From a bacterium (GTDB taxonomy: Bacteria > Armatimonadota > Chthonomonadetes > Chthonomonadales > JAMCWF01): a DNA stretch of 64,000 nt. A model generated the notes under the pieces. The model saw nothing but the letters and a program-made list of their open reading frames with translations. It was not told the origin of the DNA and did no database searches. Each line of letters opens with the position of its first letter. Position 1 is the stretch's first letter. Shown here in pieces: positions 1,494 to 63,783 of this stretch. A program made the translations under genes and the position numbers. The DNA lies in contig JAKBZR010000005.1 of assembly GCA_021842405.1 (NCBI GenBank), positions 2,354-66,353 of the forward strand. Direction: 5' to 3'.

Positions 1494-3389
1494 ATGCCAA
1501 ACTTCTCGAAATCACGAGTTTCGTTATTAACCATAGCTTTTACGTTGCTGGCCGGTCAACTCAGCTTGACCGCGCGCGCTGATACGATACGTCCGATTAA
1601 GCTTAAGGTCGGCGGCAAAAAAGTTCAGTCCGCCACCCCGATTTTAACCGACGGCAGCGATGTCTACCTTCCCTTGGATGATGCATCGGTATTGGGATGC
1701 ACCGCCCAACTTTCAAGGAGAAAAGACACCGCCACGGTGACTCCATTGGCAGGCAACCCATTTGAGGTCCCAGTGGTTAAGATAGCTGGTAATCGGCTGC
1801 TTTCGATGAATGCAATCGCGAATGCGTTGCAGTGCCTTTTGAGCATTCCCAGCGGAAAAGGAGATGCGGTGCTCAGCGCCTCGATTCAAGAGGTGAAATT
1901 AACTGGGAATCGCCTGATGATCCGAGCCGGCCTGCCTATTCAGGCCGTTCTCCACCAGGATTTCAATCATCAGCCGCCGATGTTTTACCTTGATTTGCCC
2001 GATACCTTTTTACCGGAGGGCTTCAAGGCCGCTCCGATTCGGTCCGGTGGCGCCGCTGCTGCAACCAATCTGAGGGTTGGACAGTTCGACCCAACCACGG
2101 TTCGGGTCGTGGTGGAGACGGGGCAGCCGGTCGCCGTCAACTTGCTCAAGAAAACGGCGTCCGGTACGGTGGCGTTGCAGTTTGAACCGGTGCAGGCACC
2201 GCTTCCCATTACAAATCCGGCCATTCAAAATGTATCGCCAGCCAGAAAGAATACACCATCCAGCAATCCGGAGCAGGCCAATCAGAGGGCAGGGAACAAT
2301 CTACCGAGCCGCTCCGAAACGCTGGAGCAGGCGGAACAGCCGTCATTACCGGTATCCGGTGGTATTTCATCCCCTACGAGTAATGGCCCATCAATTCCAG
2401 CCAATCCGAACCTTCCTATGATTACGGGTATACAGATCAAGCATTCGGGCATAAATCGCGCCGTACTCCACTTCACGACCACCGGCCCGGTGCAAACGAT
2501 GATGAGGATTTTAAAGGGTGGTGCGGAGCTGGCCATTGATTGCATCCATGCAGGGGTCAGCCTGCCGGCCAGCACGATCCCGCTCAACCTACCCTTAATC
2601 AAGACCGTTCATGTAATCGGCAAAGTGGCCGGCGAGGACGCGGAGCGAATCGTGCTGGATACCGCTCGAATATTGGCCTACCACATGCAGCCCGACGCGG
2701 TTGCTGGTCAGGGCTTTACGCTCAACCTGAATGTTCCGACCAGTACCGGTATGCAGCTCAGCAATACGATCATTGTGGTTGATCCAGGCCATGGGGGCAC
2801 CGAGTCAGGAGCGGTTTGGCATGGGCAAAATACGACCGTCTACGAGAAGGATTTAACGCTGCAGATCGGTTTGAAGTTGGCGGCATTGCTTCAAAATGCG
2901 GGTGCTCAAGTGATCATGACGAGGACAACCGATACCACTGTTCCACTAGATAGCCGTCCCGAGCTTGCCAATCAAAATCACGCAAATATCTTTGTCAGCG
3001 TACATATTGATGATTGTCCTGGGCACAACGTGGCCTCCGGCAGCACCGTCTATTATCACATGGACAGTGCGGACAGCCGAGCGCTGGCCGAATCGGTCGA
3101 CTCACAGATTGCAGCCGTAAGCGGCCTTCCAAATCGGGGCGCGCTGTCGGACGGCGTGCTCTATCAATCGGGGTTAGCCGTGCTGCGGCTCAGTACGATG
3201 CCGGCCATACTGGTCGAATGCGGCTTCATCAATAATGACACCGATCGTTCGCTGTTGATGAATTCGGACTATCAAGAGAAGTTTGCTCAAGCGATCTGTC
3301 AGGGAATCATAAATTATGTGGAAAGCGGTGCGATGCCGGCAAATTCCAATAATCAGCCGATATCTCCCAATACACTGAACCAACAATGA
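1494..3389 (+). CDS. N-acetylmuramoyl-L-alanine amidase (Amidase_3 catalytic domain) with long N-terminal beta-rich/AMIN-like region and Pro/Ser-rich linker
   Basis: Strong SD (gaaaggaggtg) lies upstream of the ATG and there is a signal peptide. The C-terminal domain carries VVDPGHGGTESGAV...FVSVHID...ILVECGFINN, as in AmiC-type amidases. Confidence 0.85.
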   Translation: MPNFSKSRVSLLTIAFTLLAGQLSLTARADTIRPIKLKVGGKKVQSATPILTDGSDVYLPLDDASVLGCTAQLSRRKDTATVTPLAGNPFEVPVVKIAGNRLLSMNAIANALQCLLSIPSGKGDAVLSASIQEVKLTGNRLMIRAGLPIQAVLHQDFNHQPPMFYLDLPDTFLPEGFKAAPIRSGGAAAATNLRVGQFDPTTVRVVVETGQPVAVNLLKKTASGTVALQFEPVQAPLPITNPAIQNVSPARKNTPSSNPEQANQRAGNNLPSRSETLEQAEQPSLPVSGGISSPTSNGPSIPANPNLPMITGIQIKHSGINRAVLHFTTTGPVQTMMRILKGGAELAIDCIHAGVSLPASTIPLNLPLIKTVHVIGKVAGEDAERIVLDTARILAYHMQPDAVAGQGFTLNLNVPTSTGMQLSNTIIVVDPGHGGTESGAVWHGQNTTVYEKDLTLQIGLKLAALLQNAGAQVIMTRTTDTTVPLDSRPELANQNHANIFVSVHIDDCPGHNVASGSTVYYHMDSADSRALAESVDSQIAAVSGLPNRGALSDGVLYQSGLAVLRLSTMPAILVECGFINNDTDRSLLMNSDYQEKFAQAICQGIINYVESGAMPANSNNQPISPNTLNQQ

Positions 3390-3907
3390 AGAAAAAGACA
3401 CTTATTTGGATCGGGATTTGCATTGCAATTGCGGCGATTGTGCTATGGCGATGGCTCCCCAGCCGATCCTCATACTATCAGGGGAACGGGAGTATTCGGA
3501 TACCGATGGTGCAAGTGCATAACAACCAATTTAAAATGGCAATGCGGCTGTACCACGTAGATCCCAAACAGGACGTGGTAGCGGAGGCGCTGCGCAAACT
3601 GCTTTCCGATGGCGGGGCGCTCTCTCCATTTCCATCCGGTACCCGGCTGCTGGATTTACGAGTGCAAAACAGCATCGCTTACGTCAATTTCAGCTCCGAG
3701 TTCAACCAAATCCGTGAAAATGGTGATACCACTGAGTCGCTGGCGCAAAATGCGCTGCGCAAGACACTGGCTCAGTTTGAGCAAGTTAAGGCCATGCGCA
3801 TCATGGTAGATGGCAAGCCGTTTGTGGGGGAACACTCCGATTGGTCACAACCAATCCCGGTGAGGGGCACCGACGGCGGCGTCACGCAAGGCGCAAGCGC
3901 CGGATGA
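3386..3907 (+). CDS. GerMN-domain protein (membrane anchored)
   Basis: ATGA overlap with the amidase stop. N-terminal TM helix. The segment LLDLRVQNSIAYVNFSSEF...MRIMVDG resembles the GerMN domain often found beside amidases. Confidence 0.6.
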   Translation: MKKKTLIWIGICIAIAAIVLWRWLPSRSSYYQGNGSIRIPMVQVHNNQFKMAMRLYHVDPKQDVVAEALRKLLSDGGALSPFPSGTRLLDLRVQNSIAYVNFSSEFNQIRENGDTTESLAQNALRKTLAQFEQVKAMRIMVDGKPFVGEHSDWSQPIPVRGTDGGVTQGASAG

Positions 3908-4761
3908 TGAAGTGTGGACCAGTCGGTGTGTTTGATTCGGGGGTTGGCGGCTTCAGTGTAATCAACGCGATGCGGCGCGTGTTGCCGTTCGCGCCCATCC
4001 TTTCCATCGCCGATCAAGCCCATGTTCCTTACGGGGGTAGGCCCTTAGAGGAGATCAATACGTACGCATTGGGGATGACCCGGTATCTGGTTGAAAAGGG
4101 CTGTTCGGCGGTTGTGATGGCCTGCAATATCTCCTCGGCGGTGGCGCTCGATGACGCTCGTGAGGCGTTTCCCGAATTACCCATCATCGGGGTGATTGAG
4201 CCGGGAGCGGCGCTGGCTGTCCAAACGACAAAAAACGGGCGAATTGGAGTGCTGGCCACGGTTGGCACGGTTCGAAGCGGCGCTTATACCCAAGCCTTGA
4301 TACGGGTGCAATCGCAGGCTGAAACATTTGAGGTGGCCTGTCCCAATCTAGTTCCACTGATTGAGAGGGGAGACACGGCCGGCTCGCAAGCCGAAAGGGA
4401 GGTGCGTGCCGTTACCGAGCCGCTATTGAAAGCCGAGGTGGATACCATCGTTTTAGGCTGCACCCACTACCCATTTCTGGCCGATGTGATCCAAGAAATA
4501 GTCGGGCCGTCCATTCGACTGGTGGATCCGGCTGAGGCAGTGGCTCAAGAGGTGGCGCTGCGATTGCAGGATTGTGAAGAGGGGTGGAGAAGCTATCTTG
4601 CGGAATCGGTCTACTGCACAACCGGCGATCTCGCCCATTTTAAACGGCAGACACGCCGGTTGTGCATGGCGGAGGAAGGCGATTTCAAAGTTCTAACCTG
4701 GGATAACGGGAAATTGAGTGATGCCCCGCAATTTGTAAAAGTTCCGAGCAATAAGGGCTGA
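3904..4761 (+). CDS. murI: Glutamate racemase
   Basis: An internal ATG at 3904 forms an ATGA overlap with the GerMN stop. VGVFDSGVGGFSV, MACNISSA and LGCTHYPF are MurI signatures. The track ORF start at 3841 is probably too long. Confidence 0.9.
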   Translation: MMKCGPVGVFDSGVGGFSVINAMRRVLPFAPILSIADQAHVPYGGRPLEEINTYALGMTRYLVEKGCSAVVMACNISSAVALDDAREAFPELPIIGVIEPGAALAVQTTKNGRIGVLATVGTVRSGAYTQALIRVQSQAETFEVACPNLVPLIERGDTAGSQAEREVRAVTEPLLKAEVDTIVLGCTHYPFLADVIQEIVGPSIRLVDPAEAVAQEVALRLQDCEEGWRSYLAESVYCTTGDLAHFKRQTRRLCMAEEGDFKVLTWDNGKLSDAPQFVKVPSNKG

Positions 4762-4819
4762 GGGTTTCCACGATATCACATAATACCGGAAGAGTGCTTT
4801 CATTACGGATGAGGAAAGG

Positions 4820-5572
4820 ATGTATAACGGAGTGCCGCGAGTAGATGGGCGTGAAAACGGGGAGTTGCGAACAGTTAAGCTTATACGAGGGGTGATGGCT
4901 TATGCAGAAGGCTCTTGCCGGATTGAAGCAGGCTTTACCCATGTCCTTTGCACCGCTACGGTTGAGGAAAAGGTGCCTCCATGGCTGAAAGGTCGTGGGC
5001 AAGGTTGGGTTACGGCCGAATACAGCATGCTGCCGCGTTCATGCCGCCAGCGAATCCCACGCGAAAAGAACCAGTCCAGCGGGCGAACGATGGAAATCCA
5101 GAGACTGGTTGGACGGAGCTTGCGCGCGGTGGTGGATATGACCGCTTTGGGTGAGCGCACGATCTGGCTGGATTGCGACGTTTTACAGGGCGATGGGGGG
5201 ACTCGAACCGCATCGGTGACCGGCGCCTACGTTGCGCTGGCCGATGCCTGCCGCTGGTTAAAGGATCAAGGTTTGGTGAAGCGAAATCCACTGACCGGCG
5301 TGGTGGCGGCAGTGAGCGTGGGCCATGTGAACGGAGAGGCCTTACTCGATCTTTGCTATGAAGAGGATTCACGAGCAGCGGTGGATATGAATATCGTTAT
5401 GACCGATACCAACCGCTTTGTGGAGGTTCAAGGAACGGCTGAGGGCTTGCCTTTCGACCGGAATCAGCTTAACTCCTTACTGGACCTGGCGCAATCCGGA
5501 ATTCGTAAGTTGATGGCAATCCAGAAGGAAACCCTGGAAGAAGCACTGCCTGAAACATCGAATTCGAAATAG
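4820..5572 (+). CDS. rph: Ribonuclease PH
   Basis: [30 protein letters not shown]...[11 protein letters not shown]...[19 protein letters not shown] aligns along its full length with RNase PH as I remember it. Confidence 0.9.
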
Positions 5573-17270: not shown

Positions 17271-17405
17271 GTAAGAGTTCAGTTTTGCGGGAGTGATTTT
17301 TGTTCGCCCCCACCCCAGCCCTCCCCCGTCAACGGGGGAGGGAGTTGATTATTGCTATAGGGGTAAAGCCTGCTGCCTAAATTACCCAGAGAACTGAACT
17401 CATTC
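17271..17405. mobile_element. MITE-like element, short variant (135 bp)
   Basis: Termini gtaagagttcagttttgcggg ... cccagagaactgaactcattc are inverted repeats. The internal hairpin is ccctcccccgtcaacgggggaggg. It sits between the two tlpA paralogs. Confidence 0.6.
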
Positions 17406-31821: not shown

Positions 31822-32026
31822 GAATGAGTTCAGTTCTGTGGGAAACATTTACGACCATATTGGATGCACCCCCACCCTAACCCTCCCCCGTAAACGGGGG
31901 AGGGGATTAAGAGGGACTGGGGGGCAAGATAAAAGCGCCGCCGCTAAATTCCCTCTCCCTCCCCGCTTGCGGGGAGGGCTGGGGTGGGGTCGAACGAAAA
32001 TCATTCCCGCAAAACTGAACTGTTAC
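31822..32026. mobile_element. MITE-like element, 205-bp type (copy 1 of 3 near-identical)
   Basis: Termini are inverted repeats about 30 bp long (gaatgagttcagttctgtgggaaacattt ... aaaatcattcccgcaaaactgaactgttac). The interior is shared almost base for base with 42030-42234 and 53043-53248. Confidence 0.7.
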
Positions 32027-32082
32027 CTGCAAAGCAGTATGACTAGTCCGCAGTATCATTCCATTTGCAAGGAGCGAAATGA

Positions 32083-42029: not shown

Positions 42030-42234
42030 GTAAGTGTTCAGTTTTACGGGAATCATTTACGACCATATTGGATGCACCCCCACCCTAACCCTCCCCCGTA
42101 AACGGGGGAGGGGATTAAGAGGGACTGGGGGGCAAGATAAAAGCACCACCGCTAAACTCCCTCCCCCTCCCCGCTTGCTGGGAGGGCTGGGGTGGGGTCG
42201 AACGAAAATCATTCCCATAAAACTGAACTCTTAC
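42030..42234. mobile_element. MITE-like element, 205-bp type (copy 2 of 3)
   Basis: The left end gtaagtgttcagttttacgggaatcatttacg matches the inverse of the right end (gtaagagttcagttttatgggaatgattttcg). The track ORF 42034-42276 lies inside it. Confidence 0.7.
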
Positions 42235-46203: not shown

Positions 46204-48507
46204 CTATGGCACGTAGGCCACTCCTTCCGATGGTGGGTTTTGGTGACCATCTTGAAAGAGCGCCGTTATTCGATACCACGGCTTTTCCGCGCTGAAATGC
46301 AGATCCAGATAGCGATTTTGGCGTGTTTTTGCCACTAGATTGGTAGGAGAAGGGGTCAAATTTCGATTTGCCCCGTGGTAGATACAAAATGTCACGAAGC
46401 CCGGCATATCCTGCCATTTCACCCCGCTCGGAGTTCGATCTGACCAGGAGAGCAGTACTTTTCCACTCATATTTTTCCCGTATGCCAATACGTTGACTAC
46501 CGGTGGTAGGCGGTTAGCCGCCTTAACCGGCATGACCACCCTAACCACCGGTGACCACGGTCCTTCCATACCATCTCCGTTAATGGCACGAACTCGGCAA
46601 TAGTACTCTCGCTCACCGGCCGGCAATGGGAACTCATTAGCGGTCGTCGTGACTCGTTTTGCCATTAACCGATCGGCATTGGAGGCAAATTCAATCCGAA
46701 AGCGCTGCACGAACAATCCGCCTGGCTCAGCCCAGCGCAATACCCCCTGTTCAGCTCGGGCATCGGGCACGATCGGCGGCAATGCAATGATTTCGGTACA
46801 CTGAGCGGTGACACGATATTGTCCTCGTGCAGGAACAGAAATCTGGCTCCCACTGGTTTCTGCAACCAGCCGGTGACCCTCCCAAACCTGAAACTTTTTA
46901 AAACCGTGTAAATCGCTCCAGCGCCATCTCATACCTGGCCAGATATAGGGAGACCAGGTTAGATGGTGCCCGGTGCCTGAAGAGATCAGACGCACTTTTT
47001 GGACTGGCGGAGGGGTGAAACGCCGGGAGCTTCGATCGGAGTAGGGCCGGTCTGGAAGCGTCGAGAACAGTGATTGTATCGCATCCGCAAATGGGCCTGT
47101 TCGAACTATAAAATCGTGCGCCGACTCTTGCCAACTGATCGGCGTCAAGATATGAGAGCGAAATCGGAGGCAGACATTGAGACTATGGGTATAGGCGCCG
47201 GGTGGCGCAGCCAATGAGTTGATTGGGTATGGATGGTATTCAAAAATGCCCCAGTTCGGATTGAGGTTAACGATCTGGCTGAAGGAGGCCGTATCGCTGG
47301 CGGCGCCGAAATAGGTCGTGATGCCAATGGAGCCGTCTGGCGTTGCGGCGGTCCATGCCGGGCTGGCACCCAGCATCAATCTTAAATTACCGTAAGATTG
47401 GCCTGGAACCTGGTGGCTGAAAATTCGTTTTCGGGGGATCCCAGCCTCATATAGCCACCGGGTTGCATCCGCGACCCACTCCTGCACCAGTTTTTGCCGG
47501 AAGCCGGGGTGGTGCAGGTTGCTGCTGCTCCAAGCTTGCCAAAACGGATCTCCCGGCTTTTCGGCTCGCGGCGCATCGAAACCGCCTTCAGTAAATCCGT
47601 CATCGCCCGGCTTCGGCATGCCGAGAGCCTCGACTGGAAGACGAGCTGGATACTTTTCGATATCCCAATACTCTAACATCCAGGTCTTATAATCGGTGCC
47701 GAAATATTGGTTAAACGAAGGGCCGGCCTTTGGATGCTCTTGAGGGCTTGGATCATCCCTCCAGCGCTCTCCACCGGGAAATCCTCGTCCTTTGCGCGCG
47801 CCGTGGCGATCATCGTAAATTCCACGGTGGGTCAGCCAATCCCGAAACTCCGCGATGGTATAGGGGCTATAATCGCCGAAATGATGGCCCTCCATCTGCG
47901 TTTCAACCTCGATCGGTCCGCTGGTTCCAACCACCGTCTCAGGGAAGTGTCGTAATGCGGCGGCGACCTGTGACGCGCGTTGTGAGTCGACCTCATGACG
48001 CAAGTTATGAACGGCCCGGCAGTACACCGATAGGCAAGCGCGTAATCGGAAGCCAGCTCCGGCCGTCTCCGCGATATAATCGCCGTTTTCAAGCCACTGG
48101 GCGTTTCGGCGATCGCCTTCCGGTCCGATGATGAGACTTTCTCCGCCCCACTCACGCATGTGGTGGTCGGTGGCTCCCCCTTGCAGCACCAAGCAAATTC
48201 CCAGCTTTTCGGCCAGCGCATAGGTATCGGTTTCCGCTCCGGTTGAAATGATGGCGAAGCCCAGCCGCATATAGGGGTGTTGAGGTCCCAATCGTTTCAG
48301 CATCTCTTGCGCCTCACGGGTTCGCAATGGAATGTCGGATGGCTTCCTCACATGCCAAGATTCAAAAATGGGCAGCATATAGAAGGTGTTGTCAAAATTG
48401 GGTGGCGGCAGAGTCTGCGGTGTAACAGTTTGTGGCAATGAGTGAGTCAGGATTGAGGCGGCGGAGGCTTTGAGAAAGGTGCGGCGGGTTAAATTAAGAG
48501 GGTTCAT
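46204..48507 (-). CDS. Tat-signal secreted protein of unknown function with C-terminal FN3/Ig-like beta domains
   Basis: The N-terminus RRTFLKASAASIL is a twin-arginine motif. The large N-terminal domain is not recognised, and the C-terminal ~250 aa look like tandem beta-sandwich domains. Confidence 0.55.
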   Translation of the reverse strand: MNPLNLTRRTFLKASAASILTHSLPQTVTPQTLPPPNFDNTFYMLPIFESWHVRKPSDIPLRTREAQEMLKRLGPQHPYMRLGFAIISTGAETDTYALAEKLGICLVLQGGATDHHMREWGGESLIIGPEGDRRNAQWLENGDYIAETAGAGFRLRACLSVYCRAVHNLRHEVDSQRASQVAAALRHFPETVVGTSGPIEVETQMEGHHFGDYSPYTIAEFRDWLTHRGIYDDRHGARKGRGFPGGERWRDDPSPQEHPKAGPSFNQYFGTDYKTWMLEYWDIEKYPARLPVEALGMPKPGDDGFTEGGFDAPRAEKPGDPFWQAWSSSNLHHPGFRQKLVQEWVADATRWLYEAGIPRKRIFSHQVPGQSYGNLRLMLGASPAWTAATPDGSIGITTYFGAASDTASFSQIVNLNPNWGIFEYHPYPINSLAAPPGAYTHSLNVCLRFRSHILTPISWQESAHDFIVRTGPFADAIQSLFSTLPDRPYSDRSSRRFTPPPVQKVRLISSGTGHHLTWSPYIWPGMRWRWSDLHGFKKFQVWEGHRLVAETSGSQISVPARGQYRVTAQCTEIIALPPIVPDARAEQGVLRWAEPGGLFVQRFRIEFASNADRLMAKRVTTTANEFPLPAGEREYYCRVRAINGDGMEGPWSPVVRVVMPVKAANRLPPVVNVLAYGKNMSGKVLLSWSDRTPSGVKWQDMPGFVTFCIYHGANRNLTPSPTNLVAKTRQNRYLDLHFSAEKPWYRITALFQDGHQNPPSEGVAYVP

Positions 48508-48776
48508 TCAGCTTACTCACCTCAGTGGATTTGATAGATATTTGGCGTCACATGAAGACATCTTGATCTGCTTCCTCCCATATCGTTCTCGTTATTCGAC
48601 AAGTTGACCGGATTATCCTGTACGACTGAGCGATGGGCTGGCGTGTTTTTCAACAGCCTCGTAGATGCGGAGCGTTAGCTCAAGCAGCCGTCTTCGCTGC
48701 CGGAGCAAGGCGGTTGTTTGAGCTAACCGAATGAGTTTAGAAATGAGGAGAAGCAACTACATCGGACGACAATAAT

Positions 48777-48872
48777 ATCTCAGTTTTGTGGGAATGATTT
48801 TCGTTCGCCCCCACCCCGGCCCTCCCCGTAAAGGGGGGAGGGTGTCATTGCGAGCGAAGCGAAGCAATCTCC
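48777..48872. repeat. Truncated MITE variant (one terminus only)
   Basis: atctcagttttgtgggaatgattttcg...cccccaccccggccctccccgtaaaggggggaggg..cattgcgagcgaagcgaagcaatctcc corresponds to the inverted right half of 33161-33365. Confidence 0.5.
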
Positions 48873-48889
48873 TTGCCTTTTAGTCTTGG

Positions 48890-50527
48890 TTATTTATTTA
48901 TGATATTAGCACATCGTTTGAGGACGAGCATATCGCCGTTAGTGGATACGATCTTATAATAACCGTATTTAACTGCGGCCTGGAGCAGTGGTTTATACTG
49001 TTCCGGATCGGTTGCAACGATATAATCTATTTTATATTTTGACAGGAGCGGTTTCAATTTTGCCGGAAGTGGCGGGTGGTAGTTCAAATCTTCCTGTCGG
49101 ATAACTGCAGCGCCTGCCCCGTACCATGCCTTGATAAAAGGATTGGGAAACATGTAGATTTGATCGCGATGCGCCAGGTGAACCACCAGGCTGGGCGATG
49201 CGGATACCGAGGCTTGGGGCGGGATTTCAGCCAATATGGCATTCCGTTCTTGGAGGGCCACTTGGGGTGGCGCGTGTTTCCATAGATACGCCATGTTTTC
49301 CCACGGCCCAAAGCTCCAGAAGCAGAAGGTGCCCAAAAGCAGCAGCACCAAGCCAGCCAACTCGCCGCCGTACCGTGGTATCAAGTCGAAGCGCTTCAAT
49401 AGGTACCACAACCTCCCCAAACCGATGGCAGCCGCGCCGTAGACGAAAGGCAAGATGGCCGGCGTGTACTGCGCGTAGATCGTTTGCATAATTTGCCTTG
49501 TGCTCAGCAGGTCCATCATCAGCTCCGGCAAGGCGGCCAGCAGCAGTTCCGGGCATAAAAGGCAGAGGCCGGCGGCCGGTATAATAATCCGAAGCATGAA
49601 ATTAACATTGCCGGGCACCGCATAAGAGATCGTCCGGATCGGATGGAGGAGCACGTTCATTACGATCTGGAGCGGCGTTCGGCCCAGATAGCTGTAAAGC
49701 GCAACGTACCCGGTACCAGCTCCCGAAAGCCGGTGCATAACGGGCAGGCAGATGAGCAGCCACACGATGCCGGACATCATCACGGCAAAACCGGCGATCA
49801 GCCGCGTGTTGCGGCGCTGCCGCGAATCGCGTTGATGGGATTGTTTCGGCTCATTAATTGGTGAATTACCACCTCTGAATGCAGCCGATCTTAACATGAT
49901 AGCTATACCGTACACGGCCACGCTCAGCGCGATGTCCTGTCGGCAGCAGAGCGCCAGCAGCACCCAGACCGCAAGCATGCGGTAATTTTCACGCTCCATC
50001 GCGTCAATCGCGAACAGCAAGATCGGAGCGGCCGGCATATTCGGGTGAAAATCGAAGAGTGTGGGGTATCCCAGCGCCGGTGCGAACAGATAGGTGAAGC
50101 TCAAGCCGGCCGCCGCCGCTGGCGGCGCTGAATGGTGGCGGGCGATCCGGTATATCGGCCAAGCGCCGAGCGCCAGCGCAGCCGACTGGAAGGCCACCAG
50201 ACCCTGCGGCTCCGGTATGAACCAGTAGATCGGGGCGAGCAGAAACAGGATCGGCGTGAAATGATCGCCGAAGAGGTTCATTCCGCGGATCGTGTTGAAA
50301 AGGGACTGGAAGTGTGCGATTTGCCAAAGCGTCTGGTCATAAATACCAAGGTCAAAAGCATCCGCCTCAAATGCGGTGACTTTCTTGATGGACCATATCC
50401 CGTAGACGATCGCATAGGCCAGAATGCCAAGCCAGACGAGGTTGGAGGCAATCTGTTCGCTGGAGGCTGTGTTTTTGGAGCCTAAATTGGTTTTACTATT
50501 ACTAATCTTCTCCCCTTTTCTTTGCAT
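48890..50527 (-). CDS. DUF2079-family polytopic membrane protein (GT-C-like)
   Basis: DAFDLGIYDQTLWQIAHF lies near the N-terminus, there are at least 10 hydrophobic helices, and the C-terminal domain is soluble. Confidence 0.65.
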   Translation of the reverse strand: MQRKGEKISNSKTNLGSKNTASSEQIASNLVWLGILAYAIVYGIWSIKKVTAFEADAFDLGIYDQTLWQIAHFQSLFNTIRGMNLFGDHFTPILFLLAPIYWFIPEPQGLVAFQSAALALGAWPIYRIARHHSAPPAAAAGLSFTYLFAPALGYPTLFDFHPNMPAAPILLFAIDAMERENYRMLAVWVLLALCCRQDIALSVAVYGIAIMLRSAAFRGGNSPINEPKQSHQRDSRQRRNTRLIAGFAVMMSGIVWLLICLPVMHRLSGAGTGYVALYSYLGRTPLQIVMNVLLHPIRTISYAVPGNVNFMLRIIIPAAGLCLLCPELLLAALPELMMDLLSTRQIMQTIYAQYTPAILPFVYGAAAIGLGRLWYLLKRFDLIPRYGGELAGLVLLLLGTFCFWSFGPWENMAYLWKHAPPQVALQERNAILAEIPPQASVSASPSLVVHLAHRDQIYMFPNPFIKAWYGAGAAVIRQEDLNYHPPLPAKLKPLLSKYKIDYIVATDPEQYKPLLQAAVKYGYYKIVSTNGDMLVLKRCANIINK

Positions 50528-50539
50528 TATTGTTATATA

Positions 50540-51613
50540 TTATTGAATACCGCCACTAATTAGAAGGTTTGTAAGAGTATTAGTAATAGGCATCCCCGTC
50601 AAGTTTTCGATCCATTGCCATTGACCTGCCGTGTTGACTTCTAAAAATACATATTCACCTTCTGGGGTTAAGATCATATCAACACAACCGAATACCAAAT
50701 TAAGCTCTCTCATCAATATCAATAATTTGTTACTAATTTCATCGGGTAAATTATGTGGTTCATGATGGAGTAATCCGGAAGATTCAGCTAGTGCTTGAGC
50801 ACGAAAATCCACCTTCGTATCTTCACGTTCCTGAGAATGTATTTCAGCGGCGAAAATATTATTTCCGATAATAGTTATCCTTATTTCGATGCGTTTATTG
50901 ATATATTCTTGAAATATAGCAGGGCATCCTGCAACCAATTTCAAATATGGAATTTTATCAATGGTTAATAATTGAGATAATAATGCTTTTACTTCAGGTT
51001 CTCGGTTGATAGGTGGAGCAGGTGGAATGTTAAAATGATTTTTATAAGCTGTCTGAATTTCTAATGAAAAATCAGGCGGACCACCAGTTGTTAGTCCAAT
51101 AACAGGTTTAAACAAGACTGTTCCGGATATTGATTCTACAAATTCATTAACTGCAGCGGGATCATTTGTAATGATGGTTTTAGGGACTTTAAGACCAACT
51201 CTTCTTGCTACTTCAAATTGGTATGGTTTGACATTCGCTCGATAATCGCTGATAAAATGATTTACCCAAAAACAATGCATACTTTCAAATGCACCGTGCA
51301 GCATACTGGCGCATTCATGCCTTATGAATCCTCTCTCCTGCTCTGTTTTAACGTTGGGGAATACGAACTCTCCTATCCTGCGTCTCCATAATGCTGTTAT
51401 ATTTCTAGTATCAATCTCAGTTCCATTGAATTTAAATACGGCATATAGTTCTTCATTGCCGGCAAATAATCTTACGTTTGTAATAAGAGGTATAGTCTCC
51501 GTATTCAAACGAAACCACGGGATCTCTTTTTTATCCAACTGTGCAGTAACGCTATCAACGTTTGGTTCAAAGTATTGAGTAATGATGAAAACAAATGGTT
51601 TTTGATGTTTCAT
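50540..51613 (-). CDS. ATP-grasp enzyme of the MdnC/MvdD-like 'ribosomal peptide maturase' type
   Basis: 357 aa. The N-terminal pre-ATP-grasp domain reads VFIITQYFEPNVDSVTAQLDKKEIPWFRLNTETIP...ALWRRR. The C-terminal signature reads YVFLEVNTAGQWQWIENLTGMPI. The gene lies in AT-rich DNA. Confidence 0.7.
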   Translation of the reverse strand: MKHQKPFVFIITQYFEPNVDSVTAQLDKKEIPWFRLNTETIPLITNVRLFAGNEELYAVFKFNGTEIDTRNITALWRRRIGEFVFPNVKTEQERGFIRHECASMLHGAFESMHCFWVNHFISDYRANVKPYQFEVARRVGLKVPKTIITNDPAAVNEFVESISGTVLFKPVIGLTTGGPPDFSLEIQTAYKNHFNIPPAPPINREPEVKALLSQLLTIDKIPYLKLVAGCPAIFQEYINKRIEIRITIIGNNIFAAEIHSQEREDTKVDFRAQALAESSGLLHHEPHNLPDEISNKLLILMRELNLVFGCVDMILTPEGEYVFLEVNTAGQWQWIENLTGMPITNTLTNLLISGGIQ

Positions 51614-51615
51614 TT

Positions 51616-52209
51616 TTATTCTGTTTTATTGCACACATTCAGAGCTTTACGCATTTCTTTTGCAACTAATGGGTTTTTTTCAGACAATAAAGCCGCGGAT
51701 AGTGATTGGAGTGTTCCTGTCAACCGCTGTCTTTCAATAAGATAGGCTGCATCCCAGCGCACTGCTGGTTGGGGGTTTTTGATGAATGTTGTCGCTGCCT
51801 TTGTCATCCAATTGACCTCGTACATTCTAAAAGCCACATCATTTTTAGGCAAGTCTATTGAGAGTAGTGCGCCCAATGCGCCGACATTGACCACCCAATC
51901 ATACGGATTTTTATCAGGATAAAAAACAAATGTCAAAAGCTGATCGAATTGTTGCTGCGTATAGTGTTTTCTCCTAGGATTTTGTACACCTCGCGGAGCA
52001 GATAAAGCATACAAATTTGCACATGCCTCCATTGCGATCGGCGTTGGATGCATTTCTTTAGGTACAAGACGCTGTAAATCTTGCGTGTTCGAGTTTTCAA
52101 ATGGAGATGAGAAATTCCCCCCGATGATTCCTGCCACGTAAAATATAGTTATAACACAAATGAATAATATTAGTCCGATGAATATTTTTTTTGATGTCAA
52201 ATATTTCAT
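51616..52209 (-). CDS. N-terminally membrane-anchored HEAT-like repeat protein
   Basis: The TM helix is IFIGLILFICVITIFYVAGII. Repeats such as DKNPYDWVVNVGALGALL, NPQPAVRWDAAYLI and EKNPLVAKEMRKAL follow. The stop lies 2 nt from the ATP-grasp ATG. I preferred the ATG at 52209 over the GTG at 52221. Confidence 0.5.
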   Translation of the reverse strand: MKYLTSKKIFIGLILFICVITIFYVAGIIGGNFSSPFENSNTQDLQRLVPKEMHPTPIAMEACANLYALSAPRGVQNPRRKHYTQQQFDQLLTFVFYPDKNPYDWVVNVGALGALLSIDLPKNDVAFRMYEVNWMTKAATTFIKNPQPAVRWDAAYLIERQRLTGTLQSLSAALLSEKNPLVAKEMRKALNVCNKTE

Positions 52210-52265
52210 CTGAGGGCTCACTTTGTTCTAGAAATTTATCAATTTGTTTTAGTCATCACTAAATT

Positions 52266-52306
52266 GGGTACTGCCCCAATTTAAGTTAAAAGCTGCGGCA
52301 GTACCC
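52266..52306 (-). terminator. 10-bp perfect GC-rich stem-loop between the 128-aa ORF and the next gene (candidate attenuator or partial terminator)
   Basis: The arms gggtactgcc / ggcagtaccc enclose a 21-nt loop. On the minus strand the hairpin is followed by aattt. Confidence 0.4.
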
Positions 52307-52342
52307 TCCTCTTTCCTTCCAGTTACTTGATGTTATATGTAA

Positions 52343-52729
52343 CTAAAAAGTGTAAGTATAGGAAGTTTCAATTTGACCTGGTGGGCTTGTCTCACTGCCA
52401 TCACTGTCGCTATCATCTGGGAAAATACGAGGGTTGCCTACCGCTTCTGAAAAGACGGAATTGTGTCCGTAAAATGTTTCGGCAGGCACATTTTTCGCCC
52501 AGAGCATTACGAATGGCGTATAATGCTCAACTTCCAAGTTTCCCTTATTCTCTAGCAAAGCTTCCACTTTAATCCCCCCTTTCCGAACCGTACTATTTTC
52601 GGAACTATACCAGTTATCCTTAGCTCCGATATCGACAGATGAGATTTTATCACGTAAGATTTGATCACGCAATACTGCAATTGCATTATTTTTATTCGCT
52701 TTGACCGATACTTTCCTTGTCCTCTTCAT
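52343..52729 (-). CDS. 128-aa protein with Asp/Ser/Thr-rich C-terminal tail; candidate substrate of the ATP-grasp enzyme
   Basis: ATG 52729 forms an ATGA overlap with the regulator stop. The tail reads FPDDSDSDGSETSPPGQIETSYTYTF. There is no signal peptide and no family is recognised. Confidence 0.45.
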   Translation of the reverse strand: MKRTRKVSVKANKNNAIAVLRDQILRDKISSVDIGAKDNWYSSENSTVRKGGIKVEALLENKGNLEVEHYTPFVMLWAKNVPAETFYGHNSVFSEAVGNPRIFPDDSDSDGSETSPPGQIETSYTYTF

Positions 52730-52959
52730 TTTGAGGGGGGGGGGGGCAATTCGATCCATCCCATCTGTAAGGCGATGATCAGAGCCTCGGTTCGCTCATG
52801 AGCCCCTAAATTGATGCAAATCTGCTGGAATTCAGTGCGTACCGTGTTGTTGGAAATGTAGAGCAGGCGGGCCAGCTTTCGGCTGTTGACGGTTCGGTGA
52901 TTCAATCCGGCTTGAAGCAACCTGATTTGCGTGCTTGTCAAAGGGTTGCGATTATTCAT
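52726..52959 (-). CDS. GerE/LuxR-type stand-alone HTH regulator (77 aa)
   Basis: LTSTQIRLLQAGLNHRTVNSRKLARLLYISNNTVRTEFQQICINLGAHERTEALIIALQMGWI. The start was moved to ATG 52959 after ggaggag. The longer track ORF runs into the MITE. Confidence 0.7.
   Translation of the reverse strand: MNNRNPLTSTQIRLLQAGLNHRTVNSRKLARLLYISNNTVRTEFQQICINLGAHERTEALIIALQMGWIELPPPPSK
52735..52746. repeat. Homopolymer G12 (C12 on the coding strand)
   Basis: I counted it directly. It encodes PPPP, starting 3 codons before the stop of the HTH gene, and lies 6-17 nt upstream of the next ORF's ATG. Confidence 0.95.
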
Positions 52960-53042
52960 TACCGCTCCTCCACGGCAAAAAACACCATCACTTCCATTAT
53001 AATACGCTTGCGAATGGCCGTCAAGCGGCCGTATTACTAGAG

Positions 53043-53248
53043 GTGAGAGTTCAGTTTTACCGGAATCATTTACGACCATATTGGATGCACCCCCACCCCG
53101 GTCCTCCCTCGTAAACGGGGGAGGGGATTAAGAGGGACTGGGGGGGCAAGATAAAAGCACCGCCGCTAAACTCTCTCCCCCTCCCCGCTTGCGGGGAGGG
53201 CTGGGGTGGGGTCGAACGAAAATCACTCCCACAAAACTGAACTCTTTC
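53043..53248. mobile_element. MITE-like element, 205-bp type (copy 3 of 3)
   Basis: gtgagagttcagttttaccggaatcatttacg ... aaaatcactcccacaaaactgaactctttc. The interior is near-identical to the other two copies. It lies immediately upstream of the ATP-grasp island. Confidence 0.7.
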
Positions 53249-53383
53249 CCAGCTTGCAATTGCGGTAAAAATGGTATATACATGTATCCGGTCGCTGTCA
53301 GCTCCCGACTTGGAATGATACCACGCTGAATCTTCTGCAAACTGCTGAAAGACCTATTTCAACGAAAGGATTCAAAATTAGAC

Positions 53384-54625
53384 ATGAACAAAGGAAAAAT
53401 TGGAGTGGGATGGGCAACCGGCTTGCTCACCCTCACCCTCTTTGCCGGTACCGCGCTCGTCAGCCAGGCTCAGCCCGGCTCCCCCTCGCACTGGAGGGCG
53501 CACCGCCCCCTGATCGTGCGGGGAATGCTTATCGGTCCGCCTCGTCCCGGCGCTCCCTTCATCCAATTCCCGATTCCAAATGCGAGAAAGAGCAACAAGG
53601 GTAAGGGCGGCGGCGGCGGGACCAGCTCCTCGTCCATAGTCTACTACGGCCCTCAATCCATTTGGTACGCTTATAACTATCCATTTACAACATCATCTAT
53701 CGGCTCAAGTAATGACGGCTCCGGCCAAACCATTGCGATCGTGGACGCATACTCTGATCCTTCCATCTTTACAGACCTGTCGGCCTTCGATTCTCACTTC
53801 GGCCTGCCGGATCCCCCATCCTTTGCGATTTTACAGCCGGAAGGAACACCGGCACCTAACAGCAATTGGGCGACCGAGCAGTCGCTGGATGTCGAGTGGG
53901 CCCACGCGATGGCGCCGGGCGCTAACATCGTGCTGGTTGAGGCGACAAGCAGCTCATTGAGCAATCTTCTGAATGCGGTGGCTGCAGCAGTAAAGTCCGG
54001 AGCGAGCGTCGTTTCGATGAGCTGGGGTGGCAGCGAATTTTCCAGTGAAAGTTACTACGATTCATTCTTTAGCGCCAGTGGTGTAAGTTTTGTCGCATCG
54101 TCCGGCGATTCACATGGCGTCTTCTGGCCCGCCGCCTCGCCCGATGTGATCGGCGTCGGCGGCACGACGCTGGATATGAGTGGAAATTCCGTCACCAGCG
54201 AGACGGCTTGGTCCGACAGCGGGGGCGGGTTCAGCTCGTATGAAGCAGAACCCTCATGGCAAGTCAGTTTTGCTGCCACGCCTGATGGTGGGTCGCTTAC
54301 CAAAGATCGCAAACATACACGCGGCGTTCCCGATGTGAGCTACGATGCAAACCCCAATACCGGTTTGCTGATCGTCTATAATGGTACTTGGTACGTGGTG
54401 GGCGGCACCAGTTGCGGCGCGCCTCAGTGGGCGGCGATAATCGCGCTCGCAAACCAGAAGCTTGCTTCAACGACCGTCGGTGGATCGGCGGGATCAGACC
54501 TTTATGGGCTGGCCACCAACGGATATAGCACCTATTTCAGAGATATACTGAATTCAGGCACCGGATATGATCTTTATACCGGGCTGGGAAGCCCCAATGT
54601 CAATCATTTAATTTCCGGATTGTAA
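53384..54625 (+). CDS. Secreted S53 (sedolisin-type) serine peptidase
   Basis: Signal peptide. IAIVDAY, LDVEWAHAMAPGA, SGDSHG and GGTSCGAPQWAA fit the Ser-Glu-Asp sedolisin pattern. Confidence 0.7.
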   Translation: MNKGKIGVGWATGLLTLTLFAGTALVSQAQPGSPSHWRAHRPLIVRGMLIGPPRPGAPFIQFPIPNARKSNKGKGGGGGTSSSSIVYYGPQSIWYAYNYPFTTSSIGSSNDGSGQTIAIVDAYSDPSIFTDLSAFDSHFGLPDPPSFAILQPEGTPAPNSNWATEQSLDVEWAHAMAPGANIVLVEATSSSLSNLLNAVAAAVKSGASVVSMSWGGSEFSSESYYDSFFSASGVSFVASSGDSHGVFWPAASPDVIGVGGTTLDMSGNSVTSETAWSDSGGGFSSYEAEPSWQVSFAATPDGGSLTKDRKHTRGVPDVSYDANPNTGLLIVYNGTWYVVGGTSCGAPQWAAIIALANQKLASTTVGGSAGSDLYGLATNGYSTYFRDILNSGTGYDLYTGLGSPNVNHLISGL

Positions 54626-63643: not shown

Positions 63644-63783
63644 CAGTTCAGTTCTCTGGGTAATTTAGGCAGCAGGCTTTTACCACTATAGCAATAATCA
63701 ACTCCCTCTCCCCTCGTGGGAGAGGGTTGGGGTGGTGGCGGCAAATGCTGCTAGAAAACATTCCCCGAAAATTGAACTCTTTC
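63640..63783. mobile_element. MITE-like element, short variant (inverted relative to 17271-17405)
   Basis: gtaacagttcagttctctgggtaatttaggcagcaggc... matches the inverse of the 17405 end. The right end is ccccgaaaattgaactctttc. Confidence 0.6.

Follow-up and report, generated by a model that had tools for sequence, protein, structure and literature searches.

Graspetides, the omega-ester/amide RiPPs (peptides made by the ribosome, modified after translation and here closed into rings by an ATP-grasp enzyme), increasingly supply protease inhibitors, as well as enzymes that cyclize peptides and proteins. In the microviridin and chryseoviridin systems (group 1; ligases MdnB, MdnC/MvdD and CdnC), the best-matching systems with solved ligase structures, the microviridin precursor gene lies upstream of two ligase genes, which are accompanied by a GNAT and an ABC transporter. 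The hairpin graspetides (fuscimiditide, amycolimiditide, albusimiditide) form TxTxT...DxDxD ladders with their hydroxyls on the N-terminal strand, and are associated with a PIMT-type methyltransferase and a conserved Asp-Gly aspartimide site. In the rosaritide system of Actinomycetota (group 21), the ligase MirB adjoins, and strictly co-occurs with, a non-catalytic SurA/PpiC-like protein, MirC, in a cluster that includes a PCAT. Here we analyze a 64,000-nucleotide stretch of DNA (assembly GCA_021842405.1, contig JAKBZR010000005.1, positions 2,354 to 66,353; hereafter ‘the window’, in whose own numbering all positions are given) and read part of its minus strand, with a probability of about 0.8, as a five-gene graspetide locus of an Armatimonadota-type bacterium. 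The five genes would encode a helix-turn-helix (HTH) regulator, a 74-residue precursor, a membrane-anchored solenoid protein, an ATP-grasp macrocyclase and a DUF2079 membrane protein. The elements of the locus, in their proposed order, are:

52996-53024, minus strand: promoter candidate, sigma-70-like (TTGACG-17-TATAAT), upstream of the HTH gene
52726-52959, minus strand: open reading frame (ORF) of the HTH regulator, 77 aa
52343-52729, minus strand: over-long annotated ORF, 128 aa; the frame is open further, to 52759
52343-52567, minus strand: predicted graspetide precursor of 74 aa, with GTG 52567 as its start codon; lies within the annotated 128-aa ORF
52496-52516, minus strand: putative leader recognition motif PFVMLWA, precursor residues 18-24
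52346-52420, minus strand: predicted core peptide, precursor residues 50-74, PDDSDSDGSETSPPGQIETSYTYTF
52266-52306, minus strand: stem-loop just after the precursor stop, a candidate attenuator or mRNA-stabilizing hairpin
51616-52209, minus strand: gene of the solenoid protein with its transmembrane anchor (‘TM190’), 197 aa
50540-51613, minus strand: predicted graspetide synthetase (ATP-grasp macrocyclase), 357 aa
48890-50527, minus strand: gene of the polytopic membrane protein DUF2079, 545 aa; fifth in the syntenic set

An earlier reading of the same letters (the original prediction) had proposed a four-gene operon with the DUF2079 gene as its neighbor. Its four ORFs, of 77, 128, 197 and 357 residues, were recovered from the raw sequence and the ORF list just where it had placed them, as were the ATGA overlap at 52726-52729 that joins the HTH stop to the ATG of the 128-aa ORF, the 2 nt between the solenoid-gene stop and the ligase ATG, and the 12 nt between the ligase stop (50540) and the DUF2079 ATG (50527). 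The four ORFs are real, and DUF2079 is a fifth syntenic gene in 5/5 close-clade loci. The AT-rich dip that had been noted was equally clear in 400-nt windows, in which GC content was 35-45% across 50400-52800 and 53-60% on either side; by gene, it was 36.4% for the ligase, 40.1% for the 197-aa gene, 41.9% for the 128-aa ORF and 54.6% for DUF2079 (window mean, 52.9%). The accessory set is also as non-canonical as had been claimed: a second ligase, a GNAT, a protease and an ABC exporter are all lacking, and in their stead there is a membrane protein of HEAT/ARM-like type.

Set beside the described systems, the locus shares with the microviridin and chryseoviridin clusters the enzyme family and its MvdD-type pre-domain, and with microviridin the position of the precursor gene upstream of the ligase, but it has one ligase rather than two and neither a GNAT nor an ABC gene. 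Unlike the hairpin graspetides, it has no PIMT-type methyltransferase and no conserved Asp-Gly aspartimide site. The rosaritide system resembles it at the level of genes: a non-catalytic protein adjoins the ligase and strictly co-occurs with it, and MirB is assigned to TIGR04187, which is also the best NCBIfam model for the window ligase. The partner here, however, is an orphan ARM/HEAT-like solenoid with a transmembrane anchor rather than a SurA/PpiC-like protein, no PCAT is present, and the host belongs to Armatimonadota, not Actinomycetota.

The ligase carries the assignment. Against NCBIfam it scored 225 bits with TIGR04187, 200 with MvdC, 194 with MvdD and 103 with the grasp-with-spasm model. 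Amino-acid ligase models gave 45 bits for RimK (cutoff 143), 29 for LysX (cutoff 276), 13 for Ddl and 11 for GshB. RimK, LysX and GshB have in common with the window ligase the ATP-grasp fold and the C-terminal ATP-binding half (RimK-type, PF08443, 29 bits), but they lack the MvdD-type pre-domain, and their scores are 5- to 20-fold lower (45, 29 and 11 vs. 194-225 bits). That pre-ATP-grasp domain (PF21068) was found at residues 18-120 with 45.1 bits (cutoff 27), and the FLEVN..GQWQWIE..TGMPI signature is present as well; both had been picked out in the original prediction. All six PDB sequence matches were graspetide ligases (MdnB, MdnC, AMdnB, CdnC, 9BOU and PsnB), the best being MdnB (E = 1.7e-40, 142 bits) and MdnC (E = 7e-38, 134 bits). 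The D-[FW]-R motif described for graspetide ligases (PMC13097080) appears as VDFR, aligned with VDWR of MdnB. In an alignment of 36 family members, D269 and R271 of this DFR motif, E325 and N327 of FLEVN, K169 and Q235 were invariant. Relative to MdnB, the protein carries about 26 additional residues in the linker between its two aligned halves. By profile and motif, the 357-aa protein is a predicted graspetide macrocyclase of the MdnB/MdnC/MvdD type and not a RimK, Ddl or GshB enzyme, in agreement with what had been proposed for it.

Related loci define the unit. The close-clade ligases are 69% identical to that of the window in L001, 69% in L002/L003 (annotated Armatimonadetes), 56% in L004 (whose 90% cluster includes a Chthonomonas sp. 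protein) and 70% in L008. Compared all against all, the window (±10 kb) and L001, L002, L004 and L008 shared only five genes: the HTH gene (43-45% identity), the precursor, the solenoid gene (37-42% identity), the ligase (56-69%) and DUF2079 (52-63%). The other flanking genes differed. The proposed neighborhood check thus came out positive, with the genes recurring together in 5 distinct close-clade loci. Among the 80 loci of a metagenome scan, the family was represented by L008-L012 only, and a genome-contig scan based on the one ligase sequence turned up a single locus, distant and uninformative.

Ligases of 38-49% identity form a wider family, in which the same type of leader, PF[VIT][ML]xW[AVT]...FS[EP], is followed by different cores (L005, L006, L010-L012 and L091-L093). 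The surroundings of these ligases vary. They include a flagellar locus with a prepilin-type gene (L005, L006, L091); a MarR gene and a MacAB-type ABC exporter upstream with a Pkinase-WD40 gene (~1150 aa) downstream (P0039, P0025); a 238-aa tyrosinase directly downstream of the ligase (P0046); and a GNAT with an FAD oxidase (L092). A Ser/Thr kinase-WD40 protein directly follows the ligase in three loci, and it is the only feature of this kind that L093 (3514-6972) shares. Since the wider-family loci keep precursor and ligase amid these other contexts, and lack the solenoid gene and DUF2079, the two-gene module of precursor and ligase is, as judged from gene content, the putative mobile core, and the Armatimonadota clade has its own fixed accessory set. 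The family would thus be a small, apparently unclassified graspetide lineage with two unusual membrane-protein partners. In the portions of PMC13097080, PMC8939145 and their supplements that were searched, DUF2079/PF09852, a leader of the PFVM/MLWA type and the Chthonomonas accession were not found, although a listing in a prior dataset is possible. Among the representative precursors of graspetide groups 25-43 that were inspected, none resembled the window leader or core.

The predicted precursor lies within the 128-aa ORF. The original prediction had seen no short precursor next to the ligase and had considered an unusually long one; neither view held, since a 74-aa precursor with a leader is separated from the ligase only by the 197-aa gene, and homologous clusters carry genes of 70-75 aa that match the last 74 residues of the ORF. 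These residues align end to end with the genes of L002, L004 and L008 and with both copies in L001, which keeps Pro18 of PFVM in register (MEALLENKGNLEVEHYTPFVMLWAKNVPAETFYGHNSVFSEAVGNPRIFPDDSDSDGSETSPPGQIETSYTYTF), and a hidden Markov model built from the peptides matched each of them at E<1e-32. The Shine-Dalgarno (SD) sequence and start in the window, aaaGGGGGGattaaaGTG at 52567, are homologous to gaAGGAGGtttaaaaagTTG in L001/L008, and the homologous precursors have AAGGAGG 6-8 nt ahead of an M-E start. Because the homologues’ length, SD/start and register all match, the 74-codon gene from GTG 52567 to 52343 would be the real gene; on these comparisons, the functional gene inside the 128-aa ORF is most likely its last 74 codons, which gene callers mis-annotate as a 128-aa protein.

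The leader is conserved as PF[VIT][ML][LMKIFT]W[AVT] in 16 precursors that adjoin ligases of the same family, and a second leader motif, FSE, occupies residues 39-41. For graspetide leaders in general, a motif of Phhx(1,2)h followed by an aromatic residue has been defined, which is presumed to act like microviridin PFFARFL (PMC8939145), and PFVMLW (residues 18-23) fits it. Both PFFARFL and PFVMLWA are helix motifs of the Pro-hydrophobic-hydrophobic...aromatic kind. A constant leader with varied cores is classical RiPP behavior, and the alignments suggest that this family displays it.

Between the precursor and the solenoid gene, the 124-nt intergenic RNA folds with −33.4 kcal/mol (z = −4.5; 0/200 shuffles as stable). 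Hairpins of different sequence occupy the equivalent place in L002 (z = −5.3), L001 (two; z = −3.6 and −4.5) and L008 (z = −1.8). An Rfam scan of 48000-54000 gave no match, so a known structured RNA was rejected. In lanthipeptide operons, a hairpin after the structural gene raises the ratio of precursor to enzyme transcript, and the hairpin after this precursor would probably set a similarly high ratio.

The core is unusual in the order of its residues. In the window, the region that follows FSE (residues 42-74) contains 6 Asp/Glu, 9 Ser/Thr and 0 Lys, and its last acid is followed by 4 Ser/Thr. Close-clade cores share the consensus P-x-D-x-D-x-[DE]...E-x-T...[ED]-[TS]-S-x-[TS]-Y-T-[FWG], whose conserved positions are D, D, D/E, E and E/D for the acids and T, T/S, S, T/S and T for the hydroxyls; these cores have no conserved Lys and at least four Ser/Thr beyond the last acidic residue. 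In contrast to the microviridin core TxKYPSDxE[DE], the window core (PDDSDSD...ETSYTYTF) places its acids first and, with no conserved Lys, is not expected to form a lactam. The D-x-D-x-D/E block is N-terminal, and the S-x-T/S-Y-T-F/W block lies at the extreme C-terminus. Endings of Ser/Thr after the last acid also occur in the L010, L011, L012 and L093 cores; the L006 and L091 cores have the ordinary hydroxyl-first order.

In every mapped graspetide, the nucleophile is N-terminal to its carboxylate partner (bioRxiv 10.1101/2023.06.21.545981). Rosaritide obeys this rule (Ser8/Ser9/Thr11 linked to Asp22/24/26), and ThfB gave no product from a substrate whose stem strands were swapped (PMC12291112). 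Equal spacing on both strands is a criterion for predicting hairpin ladders (bioRxiv 10.1101/2023.06.21.545981), and the window core has it, as the hairpin graspetides do: its D-x-D-x-D/E and S-x-T-x-T blocks match at i, i+2 and i+4, but in inverted order, with the acids rather than the hydroxyls N-terminal. The nucleophile-first rule can be satisfied by one conserved pair only, the Thr of E-x-T and the downstream E/D. From the matched spacing, a reverse-polarity three-rung ester ladder between the N-terminal acid strand and the C-terminal hydroxyl strand could be drawn, but we hold it only tentatively and rather doubt that it forms. Alternatively, the C-terminal Ser/Thr tail may serve another role, such as target binding or glycosylation.

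Taken together with the chemistry of the MdnB/MdnC/MvdD family, the locus suggests the following route. The ligase would bind the leader helix (PFVMLWA...FSE) and use ATP to phosphorylate Asp/Glu carboxylates of the core, which Ser/Thr hydroxyls would then attack to give macrolactones. Because there is no conserved Lys, esters only are predicted. The predicted connectivity comprises one small ‘forward’ ring, from Thr/Ser of E-x-T to Glu/Asp of [ED]-[TS]-S, and possibly a three-rung hairpin ladder in which D52/D54/D56 would pair with T73/T71/S69.

Several observations weigh against this reading of the locus. The ligase falls below the trusted cutoffs of the curated models (TIGR04187, 225 vs. 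350 bits; MvdC, TIGR04185, 200 vs. 425; MvdD, TIGR04184, 194 vs. 475); because it is below the cutoff of every curated graspetide model, we regard it as a member of the superfamily but of a separate subfamily. The acid block precedes the hydroxyl block, counter to the nucleophile-first order, so the ladder may fail to form. The five-gene cluster encodes neither a leader peptidase nor an exporter. In the solenoid homologues, 3-4 Lys/Arg precede the transmembrane helix vs. 0-4 that follow it; the positive-inside rule, our one criterion for topology, therefore favors an N-in/C-out orientation, which would put the solenoid domain outside the cytoplasm. Finally, DUF2079 has a host-like GC content (54.6%), is absent from the wider family and may be a mere neighbor, and its single-sequence AlphaFold2 (AF2) model was unusable (predicted local distance difference test, pLDDT, 42).

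The place of DUF2079 in the unit is thus the least secure part of the assignment, and here we lean modestly toward inclusion. The family assignment was confirmed (PF09852, 204 bits), as was the 12-nt gap noted in the original prediction. In 5/5 distinct close-clade loci, the gene immediately follows that of the ligase in the same orientation, 12-41 nt behind it, and a scan of 48400-53500 found no promoter-like site between the two genes. In GT-C glycosyltransferases, the catalytic acidic motif lies just after the first transmembrane segment; DUF2079, which we take to be placed in the GT-C clan by Pfam, has invariant D59 and D64 just after its own. Sequence and profile searches linked it to no PDB chain, and a permissive Pfam scan of five orthologues revealed no consistent second family. 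If it belongs, it would probably act on the product, or export it, at the envelope. The competing account limits the functional unit to the HTH, precursor, solenoid and ligase genes and makes DUF2079 a resident envelope gene beside which the AT-rich cassette inserted in an ancestor; DUF2079 might be, for example, a GT-C-type glycosyltransferase that serves the prepilin-like protein following it in some genomes. This account has real merit: besides the contrast in GC content (54.6% vs. 36-42% for the cassette) and the absence of DUF2079 from all wider-family loci, a prepilin-type gene downstream of it overlaps its end in L001 and L004 (L008 has a remnant), and L001 carries further DUF2079 paralogues. 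It does not readily explain why ligase and DUF2079 stay adjacent in 5/5 close-clade loci (56-70% ligase identity) when every other flanking gene is different, why the same-strand gaps of 12-41 nt contain no promoter-like site, or why the loci rank in divergence for DUF2079 much as they do for the ligase. We consider it a credible minority view, and keep the five-gene unit.

The prepilin-type genes themselves (N_methyl and SBP_bac_10 matches; N-terminus AFTL[IV]ELLVVI) overlap the DUF2079 stop at 7761-8546 of L001 and 5002-5868 of L004, and the remnant in L008 is at 4200-4340. In the flagellar-locus lineage, such a gene lies just upstream of the precursor (L005, 675-1625; L006, 3496-4446; L091, 2384-3337). 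It is not present in the window or in L002. Prepilin-type genes are abundant in such genomes, so the association may be due to chance; alternatively, their product could be the real client of DUF2079.

For the 197-aa protein, an AF2 model from a six-sequence alignment (pLDDT 84; predicted TM-score, pTM, 0.73) comprises a transmembrane helix at 2-29, a disordered linker and an eight-helix solenoid at 40-195. Foldseek matched the model to designed armadillo peptide binders, alpha-Rep, beta-catenin and importins in the PDB, with marginal E values of 3.6e-3 to 0.06; the armadillo matches cover about 115 aa at 3.6-4 Å with TM-scores of 0.39-0.47. The HEAT_2 profile scored 14.9 bits (cutoff 27.7). 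A word-indexed homologue search returned self-matches only, and relatives came through the ligase neighborhoods and an exhaustive HMMER pass over 1.84 billion representatives, which gave 7 matches, 4 of them strong. A lipoprotein reading was rejected, as the Cys in the transmembrane segment lacks a lipobox and is not conserved. The model indicates a probable binding scaffold rather than an enzyme. The gene is found in every close-clade locus (in three copies in L001) and in none of the wider family, and its product is the fastest-evolving of the set (37-42% identity). In addition, the soluble solenoid domain is basic in 5/7 homologues (pI 6.1-9.5) and the cores have net charges of −5 to −7, so that electrostatic complementarity between the two is weakly supported. 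In L001, a tandem array at 2364-4987 alternates three solenoid genes, of which the first and the third are nearly identical, with two precursor genes of different cores.

The likeliest ligand of the solenoid protein is the acidic peptide, bound at the membrane; the protein would then serve either in immunity or sequestration or as a partner or chaperone of the ligase. The first of these roles would fit slightly better, because of the N-in/C-out signal, the co-amplification in L001, the fast evolution and the basic soluble domain. The second would make the solenoid an obligatory partner on the cytoplasmic face, as MirC is for MirB, instead of an extracytoplasmic immunity or binding protein. Partner-dependent graspetide synthetases are a precedent (PMC13097080), the 2-nt stop-start gap to the ligase suggests translational coupling, co-occurrence within the close clade is strict, and the fold is of a peptide-binding type. 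Against this, the Lys/Arg distribution would favor a C-out domain, the wider-family ligases share the leader and manage without the solenoid protein, the protein evolves faster than any other in the set, and its co-amplification with the precursor in L001 is like that of bacteriocin immunity genes. We therefore judge an obligatory cytoplasmic partner to be possible but on the unlikely side, and slightly favor immunity or sequestration. A joint reading, in which the ARM-like binder and a GT-C-like DUF2079 would handle a reverse-polarity ladder outside the cytoplasm, and the Ser/Thr tail might become glycosylated, is unlikely as a whole.

The 77-aa protein is, by sub-threshold matches, a putative small stand-alone HTH protein, LuxR/GerE-like (GerE, 15.9 bits vs. 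a cutoff of 23.5; weak matches to Mga, the CsgD C-terminus and the MadR C-terminus). Orthologues with 42-49% identity lie upstream of the precursor in L002 and L004, which bears out the earlier claim that the cluster has its own small regulator. Its gene has an SD, GGAGGAG, 5 nt ahead of the ATG, and the promoter candidate at 52996-53024, solely a consensus match (11/12 positions), was the top promoter-like site within 48400-53500. Immediately ahead of the ATGA overlap, a 12-C homopolymer at 52735-52746 (minus strand) encodes the C-terminal PPPP of the regulator. The tract has 12 C in the window and L088 and 11 C in L089 and L090, and this is the only indel across 4.6 kb that are otherwise 99.94-99.98% identical; L002 has an 8-C run at the equivalent position. 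The 11-C form yields an 88-aa regulator with a different tail, and 13 C would join the HTH and the 128-aa frame into one. The length variation could be slipped-strand phase variation or an assembly error.

The open frame also bears on the remaining view of the substrate, raised in the original prediction, that the whole 128-aa protein is modified, either as an overlong graspetide precursor or as a carrier whose tail is extended by RimK/LysX-like logic. The frame is indeed open, its ATG shares an ATGA with the HTH stop, the length given by gene callers is 128 aa, and in L004 the HTH and precursor share one continuous frame. But a search with the full 128-aa protein found only itself, and its N-terminal 54 residues have no counterpart in any homologue; ATG 52729 follows the poly-C run and has no SD, whereas the homologues, with a strong SD of their own, start where GTG 52567 lies; against graspetide maturases the ligase scores 225 bits, vs. 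45 against RimK and 29 against LysX; and the substrate carries a RiPP leader and ends in YTF, not in an acidic acceptor tail. We consider this view very improbable and retain the 74-aa precursor. As to the L004 frame itself (1155-1727), it runs for 190 aa with no stop between HTH and precursor, and has an internal AAAGGAGG and an ATG ahead of the precursor part. In the window, too, the precursor frame stays open in the upstream direction as far as the HTH stop.

Repeats lie at both edges of the unit. The original prediction had placed a miniature inverted-repeat transposable element (MITE) at the upstream edge, and blastn within the 64-kb window substantiated it:

53043-53246, no strand assigned: MITE-like repeat, full copy, ~204 bp, abutting the upstream edge of the cluster
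48780-48842, no strand assigned: MITE fragment, 90% over 63 bp, just past the DUF2079 stop

Further full copies lie at 42030-42232 (93%) and 31826-32027 (91%), and other fragments at 17273-17342 and about 63702-63783. The arms are inverted repeats of each other, so that the repeat is palindromic and, with three full copies and inverted arms, qualifies as a MITE; it is a frequent element of this genome. The five-gene unit (48890-52959) lies between one full copy and one fragment.

It had also been suggested that the cluster was horizontally acquired. The cassette is compositionally foreign, and to that extent the suggestion stands. Its AT-richness, however, is a family trait and does not argue for recent acquisition: because ligase GC is below that of the flanks in every related genome checked (L001, 47% vs. 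53-56%; L002, 41% vs. 53-55%; L004, 43% vs. 55-56%; and, in the wider family, L006, 43% vs. 60-63%, and L005, 44% vs. 62%), we take it as a trait of the cassette and not as a sign of recent import here. A horizontally spreading module fits the transposases that adjoin the cassette in L005, the MITE copies on both sides in the window and the varied genomic contexts. That the cluster is instead a decaying, non-functional relic of an acquired island, as its AT-rich composition, the MITE copies at both ends and the variable poly-C tract inside the regulator gene might suggest, is scarcely credible given that none of the five ORFs is broken, the ligase has kept its invariant catalytic residues, the cluster recurs intact in several independent samples of the window’s own species at 99.94-99.98% identity with no disruptive change, and the same five genes are intact in diverged relatives.

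Two neighboring genes were also considered. Downstream of DUF2079, a gene at 46204-48507 (minus strand) encodes a 767-aa protein with a twin-arginine translocation-type signal and a weak fn3 match but no family assignment, conserved only within the same species. The divergent neighbor at 53384-54625 (plus strand), of 413 aa, has no Pfam match at E<=1, and is a secreted serine-carboxyl peptidase of the sedolisin/kumamolisin type (S53; kumamolisin, E = 1.5e-28; GTSCGAP motif). The peptidase gene is not kept beside the cluster in other genomes, though many graspetides inhibit proteases. A defense-system reading was rejected, since PADLOC gave no match for any of the five proteins.

These results point to a graspetide lineage from poorly studied phyla, found in Armatimonadota and Planctomycetota-like genomes. 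In the part of the literature that was searched, DUF2079 is not mentioned, nor is a solenoid and DUF2079 accessory pair reported with graspetides; the pairing gives both orphan families a testable functional context. The mis-annotation of the precursor as a 128-aa protein would conceal such clusters from genome mining based on precursors. If the reverse-polarity connectivity is true, it would be one not seen in any mapped graspetide. The acid-first core is, in either case, a natural test of whether the nucleophile-N-terminal rule of ATP-grasp macrocyclases is absolute, and a ligase that accepts the reverse order, if this one does, would widen the engineering scope of such enzymes.

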